NCBI GenBank assembly: GCA_963729715.1 | Contig: CAVSPA010000007.1 | Location: forward strand, 32,001-96,000 | Reading direction: 5' to 3' | From: an uncultured delta proteobacterium | GTDB taxonomy: Bacteria > Desulfobacterota > Syntrophia > Syntrophales > UBA2185 | Length of the DNA stretch: 64,000 nt | In this document: one piece after another, positions 21,824-27,800 of the stretch | How positions within the stretch are numbered: the first letter of the stretch is position 1 | How the letters are laid out: every line of letters starts with the position of its first letter | Position numbers: made by a program

Positions 21824-24800
21824 TACCCCTCCAGTTACATCACCAAAAGCTGGAGCTGGCGATGGGACTCGAACCCGCAACCTGCTGATTACAAATCAGC
21901 TGCTCTACCTGTTGAGCTACGCCAGCCGACTTACTCACCAGAACGGGAAACTTCATTTACTTGCTGCAAAAGAGCGGTTAAAATCTCCCAAAAACAAAAG
22001 CCTCTAATGGTAATTCCATAATCAAAATTTGTCAACTATTATTTTTTCTAGTGTTGTGCTGAAAGATTTACGTATCGGCTCAGCATGTATAAGAAAGTAC
22101 TGTAGGGAAATGATTTCGAGTATTGATGAACACATTGCATAAACTTCACTCTATTGAACATTAGAATCCATCCATAATATCAAAATCAGCAAGGAAATGG
22201 CTCCCCGCATATCATCATTTTGCATGTCGGAGCATCCTCGATCGCTTCTATGCCTATAAAACGTAAACCTCAGTCCCCGGCACGGAAGCAACTCTATGAT
22301 CCTTCCACCCAGGAGGCAAGGGACGTAATATAGCCTCTTATTTTTTCGCGGAGATATGGAGTTGCAAACAACATTACATTTGAACACTTCTTGCCGTCAG
22401 CATTCAGACTAGTTAGCGGCTCCCTTGGCGACCGTTGATTAATGTTCTCCAAAGACCTCAGCTGAAAATTTATAAACTTTGGCATCCTTATCTTTCCATG
22501 CATCCCGCTGAAGTCCGGCTTTGTAACAGGTTTCCTGAAGAAATGTCAAGCTATCCCAATTATATTCCGCGGCCACTTGCGGGAGCAGAAGGCCGGAATG
22601 AAACCCCTTAGTAATGTAAAGGCCGTGCATGCCCACTTCTATTTCATCTATGTTCTTAACCTGTTTCAGCGGGCTCATTACGGATATCTCGACGGTGATG
22701 TTCTTCAGTTCGTCCGGCTTTAATGGAGGAAAGCGTCGATCATCGAAGGCAGCGGCCAGAGCCATTTCTCCCACGGTCTTGTAAAGTGGCTTTCTCGCCT
22801 CGATATAGCCTATACAACCCCTGAGCTGACTGTGCTTTTTAAGCGTTACAAATGCTCCCTTCTTTTCATTCAGTACCTCCGAAGATAAATGAAATTCCGG
22901 GAGAGACCCGCCTGTTAGTCTGGCCTCTATTGTTTTTCTTACAACATCAAGAAGCGCCTTTTTGTCCAAGTCTGTCAACTCCATAACGATACCTCCCCAT
23001 CATCCAAATAACATGCATGGGAAAACTTATTACAACTTTCAAGTAAGAGGGTGTAAGTGACTAATTCATTATTTTCTTAATTTGTGATCCGTCCATGGGT
23101 GCCTGCTTGGGGTCCATGTATTCAGGCGGCAGAACATGAGAAATCTACGGCACGATCAACTGCATGTGCAGACACCAAAGCTTTCTAAAATCTAAGAATG
23201 CCGGCCCTTATAAAAGATAGCGGAAGCATAACCAACAACGCTGCTTTTATCTCCCGTTACATCTCCCGAATTGGCGTATTTCAACAATTTCGCCCTATTT
23301 GCACCCAATTTTTCTGAAACCATCATGGTCACGGCTGCCGGCCCTCCGCCGCAGGCCTCGCATAGATCTTTTTCCAAATCTTCGAGGAGACCCCTGCCAT
23401 CCATCTTTTCTATACGCTTGATCACCACCGAATCAAGCTTCACAGCCTGCTCATAAGAGTGGAAATGTGAGAGATCGGTACTTCCCACGATCAAGACATT
23501 CCTGCCATTTATCGCATTCACTATGCTCTCAGCCAGGTTTTCGCATGTTTCGCGGTCTTGCTCCCCCATAATAAGTGGCACAAAGCGAAATTCTCCGAGT
23601 GCCACTTGAAGAAAAGGGAGTTGAATCTCGAGTGAATGTTCCTGGGCATGAGCAGCCGGTATGTGGGATATCATTTCGCTTTGAGACATTATATCGTTTG
23701 CCAAGGTCACATCCACGGAGACAACGCCTAACGGGGTTTCATATCCGCCCCTGTTATATACGGAAACCCCGTGGAAAAATGCCCTATGGCTCGGGCCCAG
23801 AACCAAGACAGCATCAAAGGTTTTTCTGCGTACTATTTTGTAAGCTATTGCGGCAATCTGGCCTGAATAGACATATCCGGCGTGGGGAACAATAAGGCCT
23901 CTGATGCCGCCATCAATCACTACATCAGGCGCGTTGAGAAAAAAGTCCTCTATATCCGCCCGCAAAACCCTGGGGCTGCCAGGATACCAAGTCCCTGCGA
24001 TAACTGACTTTCTGACTTCCTTATCCATCACGTTTCCTCATTGATGCGTGTCAGCCATCAATTGCGAACAGATATTCACCAATAGCATATTCACCGTATT
24101 TGCTTCACGCAACCCTTATAAACTATTTTAATCTCCATGTTACTCCGTCTGCTGTGTCGGAGATCTCAATTCCCATCGCAAGAAGCTTCTTCCTGATATC
24201 ATCAGAAGCCTTCCAATCACCGATTCTTCTCGCGCGTGCTCTCTCTTCGAGAAGACGAAGCGCATCATCGCTCAATGTCTCTTCCTCAAAATTCATGACC
24301 CCGAGAACGGCATCAATCCTCTTTAGGACATCGAGTACATTGTCCCTTTCCCTTTTACTCAACTGCCCGAGAGAGAGTGGAATACTGACCTTCCCTATAA
24401 ATTCAAAAAGAGAGGCCATTGTATCGGATATGTTGAAATCATCATCCATGGTATCGGAGAATCTCTGTTTGATATCATAGACAAGTTGATCAGCGTCCGG
24501 GTATCCTTCACCTGGAGTATAACGAATCAGGCGCTGAATAAATCTATCCAACTTCTTGACCGTATTTCTCGCCGTCTCTAAGGCACCGGCGGAAAAATTT
24601 AGAGGCTTACGGTAGTGGGTGCCGAGCAGAAAAAACCTGATTTGTCTGCCTCCATATCCCATTGTCTCGAGATCTTCTATGGTCTTGACGTTGTTTAAAG
24701 AGCGGGACATTTTCTTGCCGTCCACCATGACCAGTTCCGTATTGATCCAGTAGTTGGCCATCCGTTTGCCGGTTGCAGCTCTCCCTATGGCCATGACATT

Positions 24801-27800
24801 TTCACAGTGCGGAAAGATGACATCGGCTCCGCTCGCATGAATATCAATATTGTCCGCCAGATATTTAAGTGAAATTGCTGCACACTCAAGGTGCCAGCTG
24901 GGCCTCACGTTCCCCCAGCGGGTCTTGAAGTAAATCCCCCTTTTCAATTCATTTAGGGAAGACCTTTTCAGAAGAGTAAAATCCACGGGGCTGTCTTTTT
25001 CATAGTCATCAGATTCAATCGTCTTGCCGGGTTTCACCTTTTTCAGGTCAATGTTGGACAGACGACCATAATCGTCTATTTTTGATATGTCAAAGTAGAC
25101 GGACCTCAATTTTTCGTAGGCGTGGCCCCTCGCCACGAGTTTTTCAACCAGGTTCACCATGGCATCGACATTTTCGCTAGCCCGGGGATAGACCTTCTCT
25201 TGTTTGATATTCAAATTTTTTATGTCGCTGAGGAACCTGCTTGTGCATCTTTCCGTATACGTAGCCAAGTCCATGCTTGCGCGCTCGGCTTCCTTAATGG
25301 ATCTGTCGTTCAAATCAATTATGTTCATAATGTGTCTAACTTTAAAGCCTTTAAAGTCGAGGTAGCGTAGGATCAGATCGGAAACGACAAAACGCCGATA
25401 GTTGCCTACGTGGGGAACTTCATGGACAGTAGGCCCGCAAGAGTGCATCAGAACTTCTTCGGTATTGATTGGTTTGAAGAACTCCTTCTCTCTCGTCGAC
25501 GTGTTGTAGAGACGTAGGGTAGATTGCTTCTTATCGGCAAAGAGTTCCGTACTCAGATACCTCTCTCCGCCGTCAGGAAAAATCACAACAATGAGCCCAT
25601 CTTCCATTTCTCTTGCCTTCTGCATAGCTACATACATGGCAGCTCCTGAACTCATTCCTACAAAAAGACCTTCCTCCCCGGCCAACCTCCGTGCGGTTTC
25701 AAATGCATCTTCGTCGAGGATATTTATTTTCTCATCCAGCCGGTTCTTGTCATAAATGCCCGGTCGGTAAGATTCCTTCATATTTTTCAGACCCTGGATT
25801 TTGTGCTGCAGGTATGGTTCAACACCCACTATCTTGATATCAGGATTATATTCCTTGAGTCGCCTCGAAATACCCATAGCAGTGCCCGTCGTCCCCAAGG
25901 TTGCCACCACCATTGTCACAGCCCCATCCGTCTGCTGCCATATTTCTTCACCAGTACCGTGATAATGAGCCAGCGTATTATCAGCATTATTAAACTGGTC
26001 GGTGCCAAAATATTTTCCTGGATCCTTGAGCATCATGTTATATGCCACTTCGATGGCGCCATCCGTGCCGAGAATTGCCGGGGTCAAGTATAACTCAGCT
26101 CCCATGGCCTTAAGAATTCTCTTTCTTTCCTCACTGGCGGATTCAGACATAGCCAGGCATAATCTGTATCCCTTGGCGGCAGCAATAAGTGCCAGACCGA
26201 TGCCGGTATTGCCGCTCGTTGCCTCGAGGATAATCTTATCGCCCGACAATTCCCCCCTCTTTTCCGCTTCGTTAACCATATAGAGGGCTATCCTGTCCTT
26301 TACGGAGCCTCCTGGGTTAAAATATTCGAGCTTTGCATATATTCTAACCTTCTTGCTCGGATTAAGCTTACGGATTTCCACGAGGGGCGTATTTCCAATA
26401 CTTTCTATAATGCTCTTATACATTCTTTTCATGATGGAATTATTGATAAAAATGAATAGATATGGCAGAATTCAAAACGTAAGAGATGACTGCTCCATGA
26501 CGGTCCAAAGGAATTAATTCCCGCTTCATCCTTCTATTACTGTTGCTTTTAATTTATGTGCCAGATTCCTCCTGGAATTTGCAACCTTCGCCCCAGAACA
26601 TGAGCCAAAACCGCCCGCAGTCAACCCGCTTCCCAATTTCCTGGCGGTAATCACAAAAAGTTCCTGATCCTTCAACTGTCAAACTTGGGCACAGGAATTT
26701 TGAGGAATTGGACTCCTTCCTCCCTTAGCGCTTCTTCTTCGTTCTCCGTAGTGATGCCTTTGATATTCCGTCCTTCTTCCTCGCCGTGATGAATCTTCAA
26801 GGCCACTTCAGCAAACTTCTTGCCGACATCTTCGAAATTCTTGTCGAGGTATTCGCGAAACAACCTTAGAGCCTTCGGCATGGATGATTCTTCAGCATCC
26901 TTCCTGTTAGATGTCTTGATATCCTTTCCCATAATGGAAATTGTGGAGGGCACCATTCCTACGGCAGAACTTCCACACGCAGGACAGATTATCAGCTTTT
27001 GCGTCTGCTGTTCTTCAAATGAAGTTCTGTCGTTGAACCAGCCTTCGAATTTATGACCCTTTTCACATCTTAGATCGTATATGATCATGACCTATCTTCT
27101 CAAATTAGACATATTGAAAAAATAATGTGGACATTTAGAGTTTAATTATATATCTTCCGAGTATATTGTTACATCATGTCGGGATGTGGCCCAGTCCGGT
27201 AGGGCACTGCGTTCGGGACGCAGGAGTCGCGCGTTCAAATCGCGCCATCCCGACCATTATTTTCCCTCGTGATAATGGAAATATCAGTTTGAATCGCAGT
27301 AGCATGCCGATGCATTGGTATTCCTAACCACCACCGACGACAGAGGCCATCTTGAAGATCGGTAGGTACATGCAAATGATCATTCCTCCGACAACTCCCC
27401 CAAGAAAAACCATCATGACAGGTTCCAGGAGTGCTGTCATGGCATCCACAGCCGCATCCACTTCATCGTCGTAAAAATCCGCAATTTTGGCAAGCATCAA
27501 ATCGAGGGCGCCCGTAGCTTCTCCAACAGCGATCATCTGAACCACCATGGGAGGAAATATACCGGTTTCCGAAAGGGGTTCTGCGATGGTTCTCCCCTCA
27601 CTTATACTATGTCTGGTTTTTATTATAGCATTCTCAACGATCTTGTTTCCAGCAGTTTTGCTGACGATAGTTAGCCCCTCGAGAATCGGAACACCGCTGC
27701 CTAACATGGTTGCAAGGGTTCTGGTAAATTTCGCCACTGCAACCTTGTTCAATAACGGCCCGAATACGGGCGCCTTCAAGGTCAAGGCATCAACCATAAG

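Follow-up and report, generated by a model that had tools for sequence, protein, structure and literature searches.

One described system that resembles the gene reported here is HisZ-HisG, in which a synthetase-derived module is joined to the biosynthetic enzyme of its cognate amino acid. HisZ, which is paralogous to HisRS but does not adenylate, confers histidine feedback on HisG (PMC9437257), and it is a separate class II subunit without an anticodon domain. A second CysRS copy is also known from the phylum studied here, namely the CysRS* of Desulfobacterales (Mukai et al., PMC5389517), which is devoid of the anticodon-binding domain and coupled to selB*/selC*; the term 'cysteine synthase' is absent from the text of that paper. 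Two further systems are MshC, the mycothiol cysteine ligase, a CysRS-derived protein with zinc-dependent cysteine activation outside translation and without tRNA (PMC2922099 and PMC9437257), and SepRS/SepCysS, which physically links PLP-dependent cysteine formation to tRNA-Cys (PMC5424206).

The window (the whole stretch of 64,000 nucleotides analysed, from an uncultured member of the Syntrophales, Desulfobacterota) carries on its minus strand a gene (24123..26432, stop codon 24123-24125) for a 769-aa protein that fuses a cysteine synthase to a CysRS-like module. Our literature search found no published account of such a cysM-cysS fusion. Unlike HisZ, its synthetase-derived module is covalently joined, belongs to class I, has an anticodon domain and, in the window's order, retains the ATP motifs. 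The assignment to CysRS* was rejected, as the anticodon domain is present and no selB*/selC* genes neighbour the fusion. MshC acts without tRNA, whereas the fusion keeps the anticodon contacts, and the folds and classes of SepRS and SepCysS differ from those of the fusion.

Architecture of the fused gene

Translation of the minus strand of the window gave one uninterrupted frame with an ATG start and zero internal stops, and GC content was uniform over the gene region. Within this frame Pfam recovered PALP (residues 10-287, 2.5e-68), tRNA-synt_1e (319-622, 2.8e-85, 287 bits), DALR_2 (657-713) and CysS_C (720-767), bearing out the fused PALP and CysRS domains claimed in a preliminary description of the locus, and the NCBIfam cysS model TIGR00435 matched over positions 1-464 of 466 with 389 bits (cut-off 340 bits). 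The SVKDR, TSGNTG, CGPT, HVGN, WHLEC and KMSRS motifs quoted in that description were each found in the protein, and the 120 best protein-search clusters all carried PF00291 and PF01406 (70-95% identity), again as claimed; the Syntrophus aciditrophicus and S. gentianae records among them are annotated only as cysteine--tRNA ligase. The S. aciditrophicus homologue has the accession ABC76162.1. The AF2 model of the fusion has a pLDDT of 91 and a pTM of 0.77. The halves are separated by the five-residue linker KKQST (residues 301-305; 25518..25532, minus strand), recognised from sequence and from low model pLDDT, which drops to 73-79 in the 10-residue blocks spanning 291-310.

The N-terminal half (residues 1-300; 25533..26432, minus strand), identified by Pfam PALP, NCBIfam and structure match, had been called CysK-like, and we found it to be CysM-like instead. 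CysM, also named cysteine synthase B or O-acetylserine sulfhydrylase B, is a PLP sulfhydrylase of fold-type II. It scored 365.8 bits against the cysKM subfamily model TIGR01136, above the cut-off of 344; 380.3 bits against the cysM equivalog TIGR01138, just under the cut-off of 394.2; and 319.4 bits against the cysK equivalog TIGR01139, under the cut-off of 351. The closest solved relatives are the CysM entries 2bhs (E. coli) and 2jc3 (Salmonella), across the entire length of which fusion residues 8-301 align (267 bits) and which the predicted fold of the half matches with a TM of 0.95-0.96 and an rmsd of 1.7. Unlike stand-alone CysM, the fusion carries about 465 extra residues.

The half contains the motifs SVKDR, with the PLP lysine K45 placed by the motif at 26298-26300 (minus strand), TSGNTG, whose Asn loop binds the substrate carboxylate, the phosphate-binding Gly loop GTTGT, and SSGAA, in which a Ser faces the pyridine N. 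The PLP-lysine motif occurs as S[VI]K[DE]R in 73/73 fusions, all of which also retain the Asn loop, the Gly-rich loop and the SxGA motif with only conservative variants. The position of R210 in E. coli CysM is held by K216, which is invariant in 70 fusions. Mean pairwise identity among fusions was 64% for the CysM half versus 48% for the CysRS catalytic part.

A rebuilt pocket and a conserved anticodon-binding part

The C-terminal half has the same order of Rossmann/CP, helical and anticodon-binding domains as canonical CysRS (E. coli 1li5/1u0b and the genome's own copy on contig C7), with which it shares C28, W205, C209, H234 and the anticodon contacts (E. coli numbering). It differs from canonical CysRS in T68I, H235C, E238V and K269R and in an insertion in the CP region. 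The earlier view of a complete synthetase therefore holds for the domain order and the full-length TIGR00435 match, but not for these four sites, which are constant in 75-76 of 76 stand-alone CysRS.

The catalytic part (residues 306-622; 24567..25517) was delimited by Pfam tRNA-synt_1e and alignment to 1li5, and all its features lie on the minus strand. The cysteine of CGPT (25428..25439) aligns with zinc ligand C28 of E. coli CysRS. HVGN (25401..25412) represents the HIGH motif, with H37 and G39 retained and, at the fourth position (40), an N that is normal in the nearest stand-alone CysRS (57/76). I372 (25317..25319) occupies the T68 position in the alignment to 1li5, WHLEC (24882..24896) aligns with W205 and zinc ligand C209, and residue-by-residue alignment to 1li5 showed that FPHCENV (24795..24815) keeps H234 but has C for H235 and V for E238. 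In KMSRS (24699..24713) the second lysine of KMSKS is replaced by arginine. The zinc ligands of E. coli CysRS are C28, C209, H234 and E238; the first three are present in the window protein and E238 is lost, so that the four-ligand set is incomplete. Because this ligand and the second KMSKS lysine are changed, aminoacylation may be weak or absent.

Residues were tallied over 32 fusion members of the window's order. Position 68, which is T in 76/76 stand-alone CysRS, is I or V in 32/32; position 235 is C in 32/32; and position 238, E in 75/76 stand-alone CysRS, is V, I or L in 32/32. At position 269, K in 75/76 stand-alone CysRS and in 1/69 bacterial fusions, R was found in 30/32. The ATP-site residues H37, G39, K266, M267, S268 and S270 were retained by all 32 members, as were C209 and H234, and C28 by 31. 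The substitutions are as fixed in the order as the retained ATP and anticodon residues, and on this sequence pattern we interpret them as the product of purifying selection on an altered site that looks ATP-competent, not of decay.

The helical (DALR_2) and C-terminal anticodon-binding domains (residues 623-769; 24126..24566, minus strand) were assigned by Pfam and by model match, the model of the C-terminal half overlaying tRNA-bound E. coli CysRS (1u0b_B) over 461 residues with a TM of 0.86. In the anticodon-contact segment (residues 735-759; 24156..24230, minus strand), R735, W740, D744, R747 and D759 align with E. coli R427, W432, D436, R439 and D451. PMC13449415 places R427, W432, D436 and R439 of the E. 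coli enzyme in its anticodon domain and describes a bond between R427 and G34. Among bacterial fusions D436 and D451 were each found in 69/69, R439 in 68/69 and R427 in 65/69, and all four in 32/32 order members; the conservation of these anticodon-reading residues equals that in true CysRS. The genome has one tRNA-Cys, an ordinary one with a GCA anticodon and U73.

Outside the window's order the ATP motifs and the zinc site have disappeared repeatedly. Across 70 fusions, the ATP motifs are gone in 46/70, resembling HisZ, which likewise does not adenylate (PMC9437257), and the four-ligand zinc site is gone in 28/70, each loss requiring at least 8 changes on the tree. The zinc site is retained without ATP motifs in 27/70 and both are lost in 19/70. 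What remains constant family-wide in the C-terminal half is the fold, the anticodon residues and an insertion in the CP domain that is specific to the clade (L496, K497 and G499 in 62-67/69). Because fusions in other orders have lost ATP and zinc motifs yet kept the domain and its anticodon residues, these patterns imply that aminoacylation cannot be the role that all family members have in common.

Distribution and origin of the fusion

Full-length single-frame fusions were found in 98/121 genomes sampled from the window's order and in 160/401 from its phylum, a range wider than Syntrophus. The matches form one open frame over query residues 1-769, except for fragments at contig ends and a single split copy (G398). 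The fusion is ancient and, as so many genomes keep the frame open, under selection as such. It is common among relatives of sulfate reducers.

In 157/160 fusion-bearing genomes one or more other CysRS-domain matches were found, in nearly every case a canonical one, so that the fusion is not the housekeeping ligase and a second charging enzyme would be needless. The genome of the window conforms to this pattern. Its canonical CysRS was located at C7:12747-14228 (HVGH, WHIEC, KMSKS; Pfam score of 449 bits versus 287 for the fusion), so that the fusion is not the sole charging enzyme. The other two genes named in the preliminary description are also present, namely a 405-aa CysRS-like protein at C3:136266-137483, which has WNIQD and no anticodon-binding end, and a separate CysK on contig C12.

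In the tree, each half of the 69 bacterial fusions forms a single (starred) clade, which indicates that the bacterial fusion arose once. The fusion of a Nanoarchaeota member is placed in neither of these clades, and in a Patescibacteria genome cysM and a canonical cysS lie adjacent, unfused and 17 nt apart; both arose separately from the bacterial fusion. These independent cysM-cysS linkages support the view that cysteine synthesis and the CysRS/tRNA-Cys machinery are in some way functionally coupled.

Possible roles of the fusion

We tentatively favour, with somewhat less than even confidence, a two-part enzyme with an auxiliary and not a housekeeping role, which would tie the local synthesis of cysteine to tRNA-Cys. 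The N-terminal half would be a putative CysM-type O-acetyl- or O-phospho-serine sulfhydrylase supplying cysteine, and the C-terminal half a second CysRS-derived module that would still read the GCA anticodon of tRNA-Cys and that, in the window's order, has kept its ATP-binding signatures while its cysteine/zinc pocket is rebuilt (T68I, H235C, E238V and KMSRS). The altered zinc site of the tethered module could take up cysteine leaving the CysM half, and this cysteine would then be loaded onto bound tRNA-Cys, which would create a channelled side-route alongside the canonical CysRS. We infer that each half is active, that the C-terminal half aminoacylates and that the halves physically cooperate. 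A coupling of synthesis to charging had been proposed before; the independent linkages and the selection on the fusion speak for some coupling with the CysRS and tRNA-Cys machinery, while the CysRS half now has to be seen as altered, not simply complete.

It is possible, though on the unlikely side, that the C-terminal half is a non-aminoacylating sensor which binds uncharged tRNA-Cys (and cysteine where the zinc site is kept) and allosterically tunes CysM, so that cysteine synthesis would be matched to charging status much as HisZ regulates HisG. The precedent of HisZ, the restriction of family-wide constancy to the fold, the CP insertion and the anticodon residues, the losses of ATP motifs and zinc site, and the additional CysRS-domain match in nearly all carriers are consistent with this, and the fusions with a zinc site but without ATP motifs would fit ligand binding minus activation. 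However, the ATP signatures are strict throughout the window's order, where a module that only binds could do without them, the 19 fusions without either motif set would have no zinc-mediated cysteine sensing, and the allosteric interface is putative.

The joint replacement of T68 and E238, both near-invariant in stand-alone CysRS, suggests changed ligand handling. The rebuilt pocket might activate another CysM product, such as cysteine persulfide, S-sulfocysteine or selenocysteine, and place it on tRNA-Cys; E. coli CysM accepts thiosulfate, and cysteine persulfide formation has been reported for mammalian and bacterial CysRS. The pocket is hydrophobic at 68 and 238 and has a new Cys at 235, all fixed order-wide, with the ATP and anticodon residues kept. 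We nevertheless consider an altered substrate distinctly unlikely, as only one of the four zinc ligands is lost and W205 is retained, which makes plain cysteine binding the simplest reading, and as other clades of the fusion family have a canonical pocket.

Chemistry of the MshC type, in which the C-terminal half would adenylate cysteine and join it to a non-tRNA amine, giving a low-molecular-weight thiol independently of tRNA, has a known example in MshC itself, and the NCBIfam MshC model does match the fusion in part. This match (TIGR03447, 184 bits) is far under the cut-off of 485, the anticodon-binding domain is conserved in full together with its contact residues, although they would not be required without tRNA, and no neighbouring glycosyltransferase or deacetylase was found at the fusion loci examined, all of which makes this role very improbable. 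Least credible is a conversion by the CysM half of an aminoacyl group on tRNA-Cys held by the C-terminal half into cysteine, for although tethering a PLP enzyme to a tRNA-Cys-binding module resembles the logic of SepCysS (PMC5424206), the genome contains neither SepRS (best 26.2 bits, cut-off 381) nor SepCysS (best 31.7 bits, cut-off 365), and every fusion retains TSGNTG, the Asn loop with which sulfhydrylases acting on free amino acids bind the carboxylate.

Concerning the locus, no conserved sulfur-metabolism neighbour was found at 59 fusion loci, and the 239-nt upstream intergenic region (26433..26671, minus strand) gave no Rfam match and, in the promoter search, one weak sigma-70-like site (26468..26439). 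In the window the fusion gene neighbours DUF1178, Memo and AMMECR1, and the nearest tRNA genes are those for Pro, Thr, Tyr, Gly and Trp.

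Architecture and distribution of the fusion

The fusion is encoded on the minus strand at window positions 24123..26432 as a single uninterrupted, ATG-initiated frame of 769 codons, with a GC content that is even over the ORF (0.44–0.48). Pfam placed PALP at residues 10–287 (2.5e-68), the class-I CysRS catalytic domain at residues 319–622 (2.8e-85), DALR_2 at residues 657–713 and the CysRS anticodon-binding domain at residues 720–767; five residues form the entire junction between the halves. With domains of both halves in one frame, the joining of a synthase to CysRS domains reported in the preliminary description is real, and both domains were likewise present in all 120 of the best protein-search clusters. 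The C-terminal half scored 389 bits against NCBIfam cysS (TIGR00435; cut-off 340) over nearly the entire model. The N-terminal half had been called CysK-like. Its top-scoring NCBIfam model was cysM, at 380 bits slightly below the cut-off of 394, and it passed the cysKM subfamily model (366 versus 344 bits) but failed cysK (319 versus 351 bits). By these model scores it is CysM-like rather than CysK-like, so a CysK-type half was rejected, and its closest solved structures are also CysM, from E. coli and Salmonella (TM 0.95–0.96). Structure comparison found no solved chain spanning both halves. An AlphaFold2 model of the fusion built from 70 family members had a mean pLDDT of 91 and a pTM of 0.77, and the halves docked as separate chains scored 0.29 against a mark of 0.32, a result weighed neither way.

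Counting only full-length, single-frame matches (query about 1–769), we found the fusion in 98 of the 121 genomes sampled from the window's order, Syntrophales (81%), in 82 of the 98 high-quality genomes among these, and in 160 of 401 genomes of the phylum sample (40%), at 45–100% identity. The identical layout in 160 genomes ruled out a gene-call or assembly artefact. These carriers span 98 of 254 genera, and the fusion extends far beyond Syntrophus. Named carriers include Syntrophus aciditrophicus, S. gentianae, Desulforapulum autotrophicum, Desulfobulbaceae, Desulfopila, Desulfocurvus, Desulfovibrio ferrophilus and one Polyangiaceae MAG, and the ESM Atlas holds several two-domain clusters, most frequent in Thermodesulfobacteriota. 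The fusion is real, widespread and strongly selected. Two exceptional arrangements were seen. One genome (G398, C15:206482-208771; loci L152 and L155) has the fusion broken near residue 343 into two abutting frames, either by a frameshift or by an assembly error. Genomes of family code f74 (e.g. G312; loci L154, L156 and L162) lack the fusion; they have two genes with a CysRS domain and a free-standing CysM. This CysM is 54% identical to the fused half, and the CysRS gene at L162 is very divergent.

The table of genomes with the fusion was compared by eye with that of CysRS-domain matches. At least two CysRS-domain matches occurred in 157 of the 160 fusion-bearing genomes, and we therefore reject the fusion as the housekeeping CysRS. 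In these 157 genomes the best match was mostly of canonical strength (~1e-130), with weaker best matches (~1e-88 to 1e-104) in a few (e.g. G262, G264, G377, G498, G124 and G128). Three fusion genomes had a single match: G205 (62% complete), G274 (95%) and G471 (97%). The source genome (19 contigs, 3.76 Mb) contains all of the additional genes that had been attributed to it: a canonical CysRS about 18 kb ahead of the window start (HVGH, WHIEC, KMSKS), a CysK on contig 12, and on contig 3 a 405-aa CysRS-like protein with WNIQD and without the anticodon-binding end. It has one ordinary tRNA-Cys (anticodon GCA, discriminator U73), and a CysE-like gene fell below its cut-off (160 versus 211 bits).

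Conservation of the two halves and the rebuilt pocket

Of the 73 fusions collected, all have intact CysM motifs. Three near-duplicate or N-terminally short sequences (L023, L027 and L029) were dropped to give an alignment of 70 (A2), in which mean pairwise identity fell from 64% in the CysM half to 48% in the CysRS catalytic part and 33% in the C-terminal part. As a control we used 76 stand-alone or canonical CysRS, excluding two representatives inside the fusion clade and the 405-aa paralogue, and counted the canonical residue at each position (E. coli numbering) in these and in 69 bacterial fusions. Residues of the catalytic part were nearly invariant in stand-alone enzymes and were often replaced in fusions: C28 (76/76 stand-alone versus 58/69 fusions), H37 (76/76 versus 42/69), G39 (76/76 versus 49/69), T68 (76/76 versus 46/69), C209 (74/76 versus 59/69), H235 (76/76 versus 40/69), E238 (75/76 versus 44/69) and K269 (75/76 versus 1/69, with R in 29); H234 was kept throughout (76/76 versus 69/69). 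The HVGN form of the HIGH motif is no defect, since N is usual at its fourth position in this CysRS lineage (57 of 76 stand-alone enzymes).

In E. coli CysRS, R427, W432, D436 and R439 contact the anticodon and have been targeted for that reason, and R427 bonds G34 (PMC13449415). In our alignment R427 was found in 65/69 fusions and 65/76 stand-alone enzymes, D436 in 69/69 and 76/76, R439 in 68/69 and 76/76, and D451 in 69/69 and 74/76. Judged by these counts, the anticodon-domain residues are equally conserved in fusions and in real CysRS. Sorted by motif, 15 of the 70 fusions keep the ATP motifs and four zinc ligands, nine keep the ATP motifs with an altered zinc site (all from the window's order), 27 have lost the ATP motifs and kept the zinc site, and 19 have lost both, each motif state requiring at least eight changes on the tree. 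The CP region carries an insertion specific to the clade (residues 494–499, about window 24936–24953), with L496, K497 and G499 each in 62–67 of 69 fusions; it is missing from 70–71 of the 76 stand-alone CysRS and is kept even where ATP and zinc motifs are lost.

Within the window's order, 32 members from about 20 family codes were aligned residue by residue to E. coli CysRS. All 32 keep H37, G39, K266, M267, S268 and S270 of the ATP motifs, the zinc-site residues C209 and H234, and the four anticodon residues, and 31 keep C28. Three replacements are also fixed in all 32 (T68 to I/V, H235 to C and E238 to V/I/L), and K269 is R in 30. In the window protein the replaced residues are I372, C543, V546 and R577, and its S. 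aciditrophicus SB homologue (ABC76162.1, 71% identical) shares this pocket. In E. coli CysRS, T68 contacts the substrate amino group and E238 is a zinc ligand. On alignment evidence, this pattern is that of purifying selection on a rebuilt pocket and not of decay. It argues for a C-terminal half that, in this order, still uses ATP and binds tRNA-Cys but treats its thiol ligand differently.

Possible roles of the fusion

We tentatively prefer, as the best of several possible readings, an auxiliary, channelled route from CysM-made cysteine to tRNA-Cys. The CysM half would produce cysteine, which the tethered CysRS-derived half would take at its remodelled zinc site and transfer to bound tRNA-Cys. 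The chief alternative, which we consider rather unlikely, is a regulatory module of the HisZ-like or tRNA-sensing kind: loss of ATP and zinc motifs across the family, with the anticodon residues retained, speaks for it, but the ATP motifs are strictly retained in the window's order. Bolder, and improbable in our estimate, is that the C-terminal half activates a cysteine derivative produced by the CysM half. A dedicated machine is a long shot, suggested by the order-wide fixed T68I/V, H235C and E238V/I/L alongside unaltered ATP and anticodon residues. Here the CysM half would make cysteine persulfide, S-sulfocysteine or selenocysteine, which would be loaded on tRNA-Cys, and sister orders with decayed ATP and zinc motifs would keep the module purely to sense tRNA-Cys and control cysteine synthesis. 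If true, bacteria would possess a way to non-canonical aminoacyl-tRNA-Cys and, in the sister orders, an amino-acid-specific equivalent of a pseudo-synthetase tRNA sensor. Readings along MshC-like or SepCysS-like lines are both weak; neither SepRS nor SepCysS was found in a search of the source genome.

Synthetase paralogues are already known to have taken on roles outside translation (HisZ, MshC, CysRS*). The fusion is a synthetase paralogue recruited beside amino-acid biosynthesis, forming a large family in which the last cysteine-synthesis enzyme is covalently tied to a tRNA-Cys-reading module. Its active-site gradation is unusually informative and offers a natural series for study, from near-canonical and remodelled-pocket forms to those without ATP motifs and those without ATP and zinc motifs. 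Public records label fusions 'cysteine--tRNA ligase' or 'cysteine synthase', and either label, taken by itself, can misdirect the metabolic reconstruction of syntrophs and sulfate reducers. A full-text literature search, with most subscription journals and supplements outside its reach, found no paper on a CysM–CysRS fusion, and this absence is no proof that the fusion is unpublished. In the portions of text available, PMC2922099 and PMC5388404 do not mention the fusion, PMC5424206 mentions cysteine synthase and CysRS as separate enzymes only, and PMC5389517, on CysRS* in Desulfobacterales, nowhere uses 'cysteine synthase'. The available text of a 2022 review of synthetase duplications (PMC9437257), which also describes HisZ, gives CysRS* and MshC as the only CysRS paralogues.

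Origins and genomic context

One FastTree tree was built per half, with 149 rows for CysRS (including 73 hand-picked stand-alone representatives of 440–520 aa with a match beginning near residue 305) and 141 for CysM. A starred branch of the CysRS tree sets apart 69 of 70 fusion halves, and the same fusions form one starred clade in the CysM tree. P0124, a 768-aa CysM–CysRS fusion from a Nanoarchaeota MAG with fully canonical HIGN, WHLEC, FPHHQNE and KMSKS, groups with stand-alone enzymes in both trees; as it lies outside the bacterial fusion clade in each, it is probably a second, separate fusion event. A Patescibacteria MAG contig (L079:5863-8280) carries an unfused CysM gene followed after 17 nt by a canonical CysRS (HIGH, WHIEC, KMSKS), an independent cysM–cysS linkage in a reduced genome. 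From the bacterial clade, P0124 and this pair, the linkage would have arisen at least three times, as judged from FastTree trees with local support only.

In the window the fusion is flanked by a DUF1178 zinc-ribbon gene (26672-27088) and, on the other side, a Memo gene (23192-24031) with AMMECR1 (22439-22984) beyond it, all on the minus strand. This order is conserved only inside the window's order (seven loci). Among the 59 of 64 fusion loci usable with an ORF caller, we found no widely shared neighbour family or sulfur-metabolism link. The commonest neighbours were a ~328-aa protein (11 loci), Tmk (8), Memo/AMMECR1 (7) and MurJ (7). In non-Syntrophales lineages the ~328-aa protein is encoded immediately beside the fusion and in its orientation, at +1 in L031, L032, L035, L118, L123, L124, L126, L137 and L141 and at -1 in L113 and L122. 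No Rfam leader was found in the 239-nt upstream region, nor any Rfam match at E<=1 in 341 nt around the start; only tRNAs reached gathering score in the window, and promoter and terminator scans at the fusion leader gave weak consensus matches only. Of 23 sequencing runs listed, none was an RNA run carrying the sequence, and the DNA runs that carry it had small word shares.

The 405-aa paralogue lies outside the window (G000 C3:136266-137483; L164:8267-9484, minus strand) and keeps HIGN and KMSKS, with WNIQD replacing WHxEC, T at E238 and the anticodon domain absent. We rejected CysRS* as its identity because no tRNA or selB was found within 19 kb. Its same-strand run (L164:7378-18978) includes NifU, a NifS-like aminotransferase V, a hexapeptide (CysE-like) transferase, a GT4/GT5 glycosyltransferase, a response regulator with PilZ, MatE and a dienelactone hydrolase, and the set of glycosyltransferase, ligase and acyltransferase is reminiscent of low-molecular-weight-thiol (MshA/MshC/MshD-like) pathways. 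Upstream in the window, positions 13510-21926 hold a conserved block named by the look of its translations (rpoB, L7/L12, L10, L1, L11 and NusG) and a five-tRNA cluster (Thr-Tyr-Gly-Thr-Trp, 21151-21926), and a tRNA-Pro (27180-27256) separates the DUF1178 gene from a type II secretion F-like gene.
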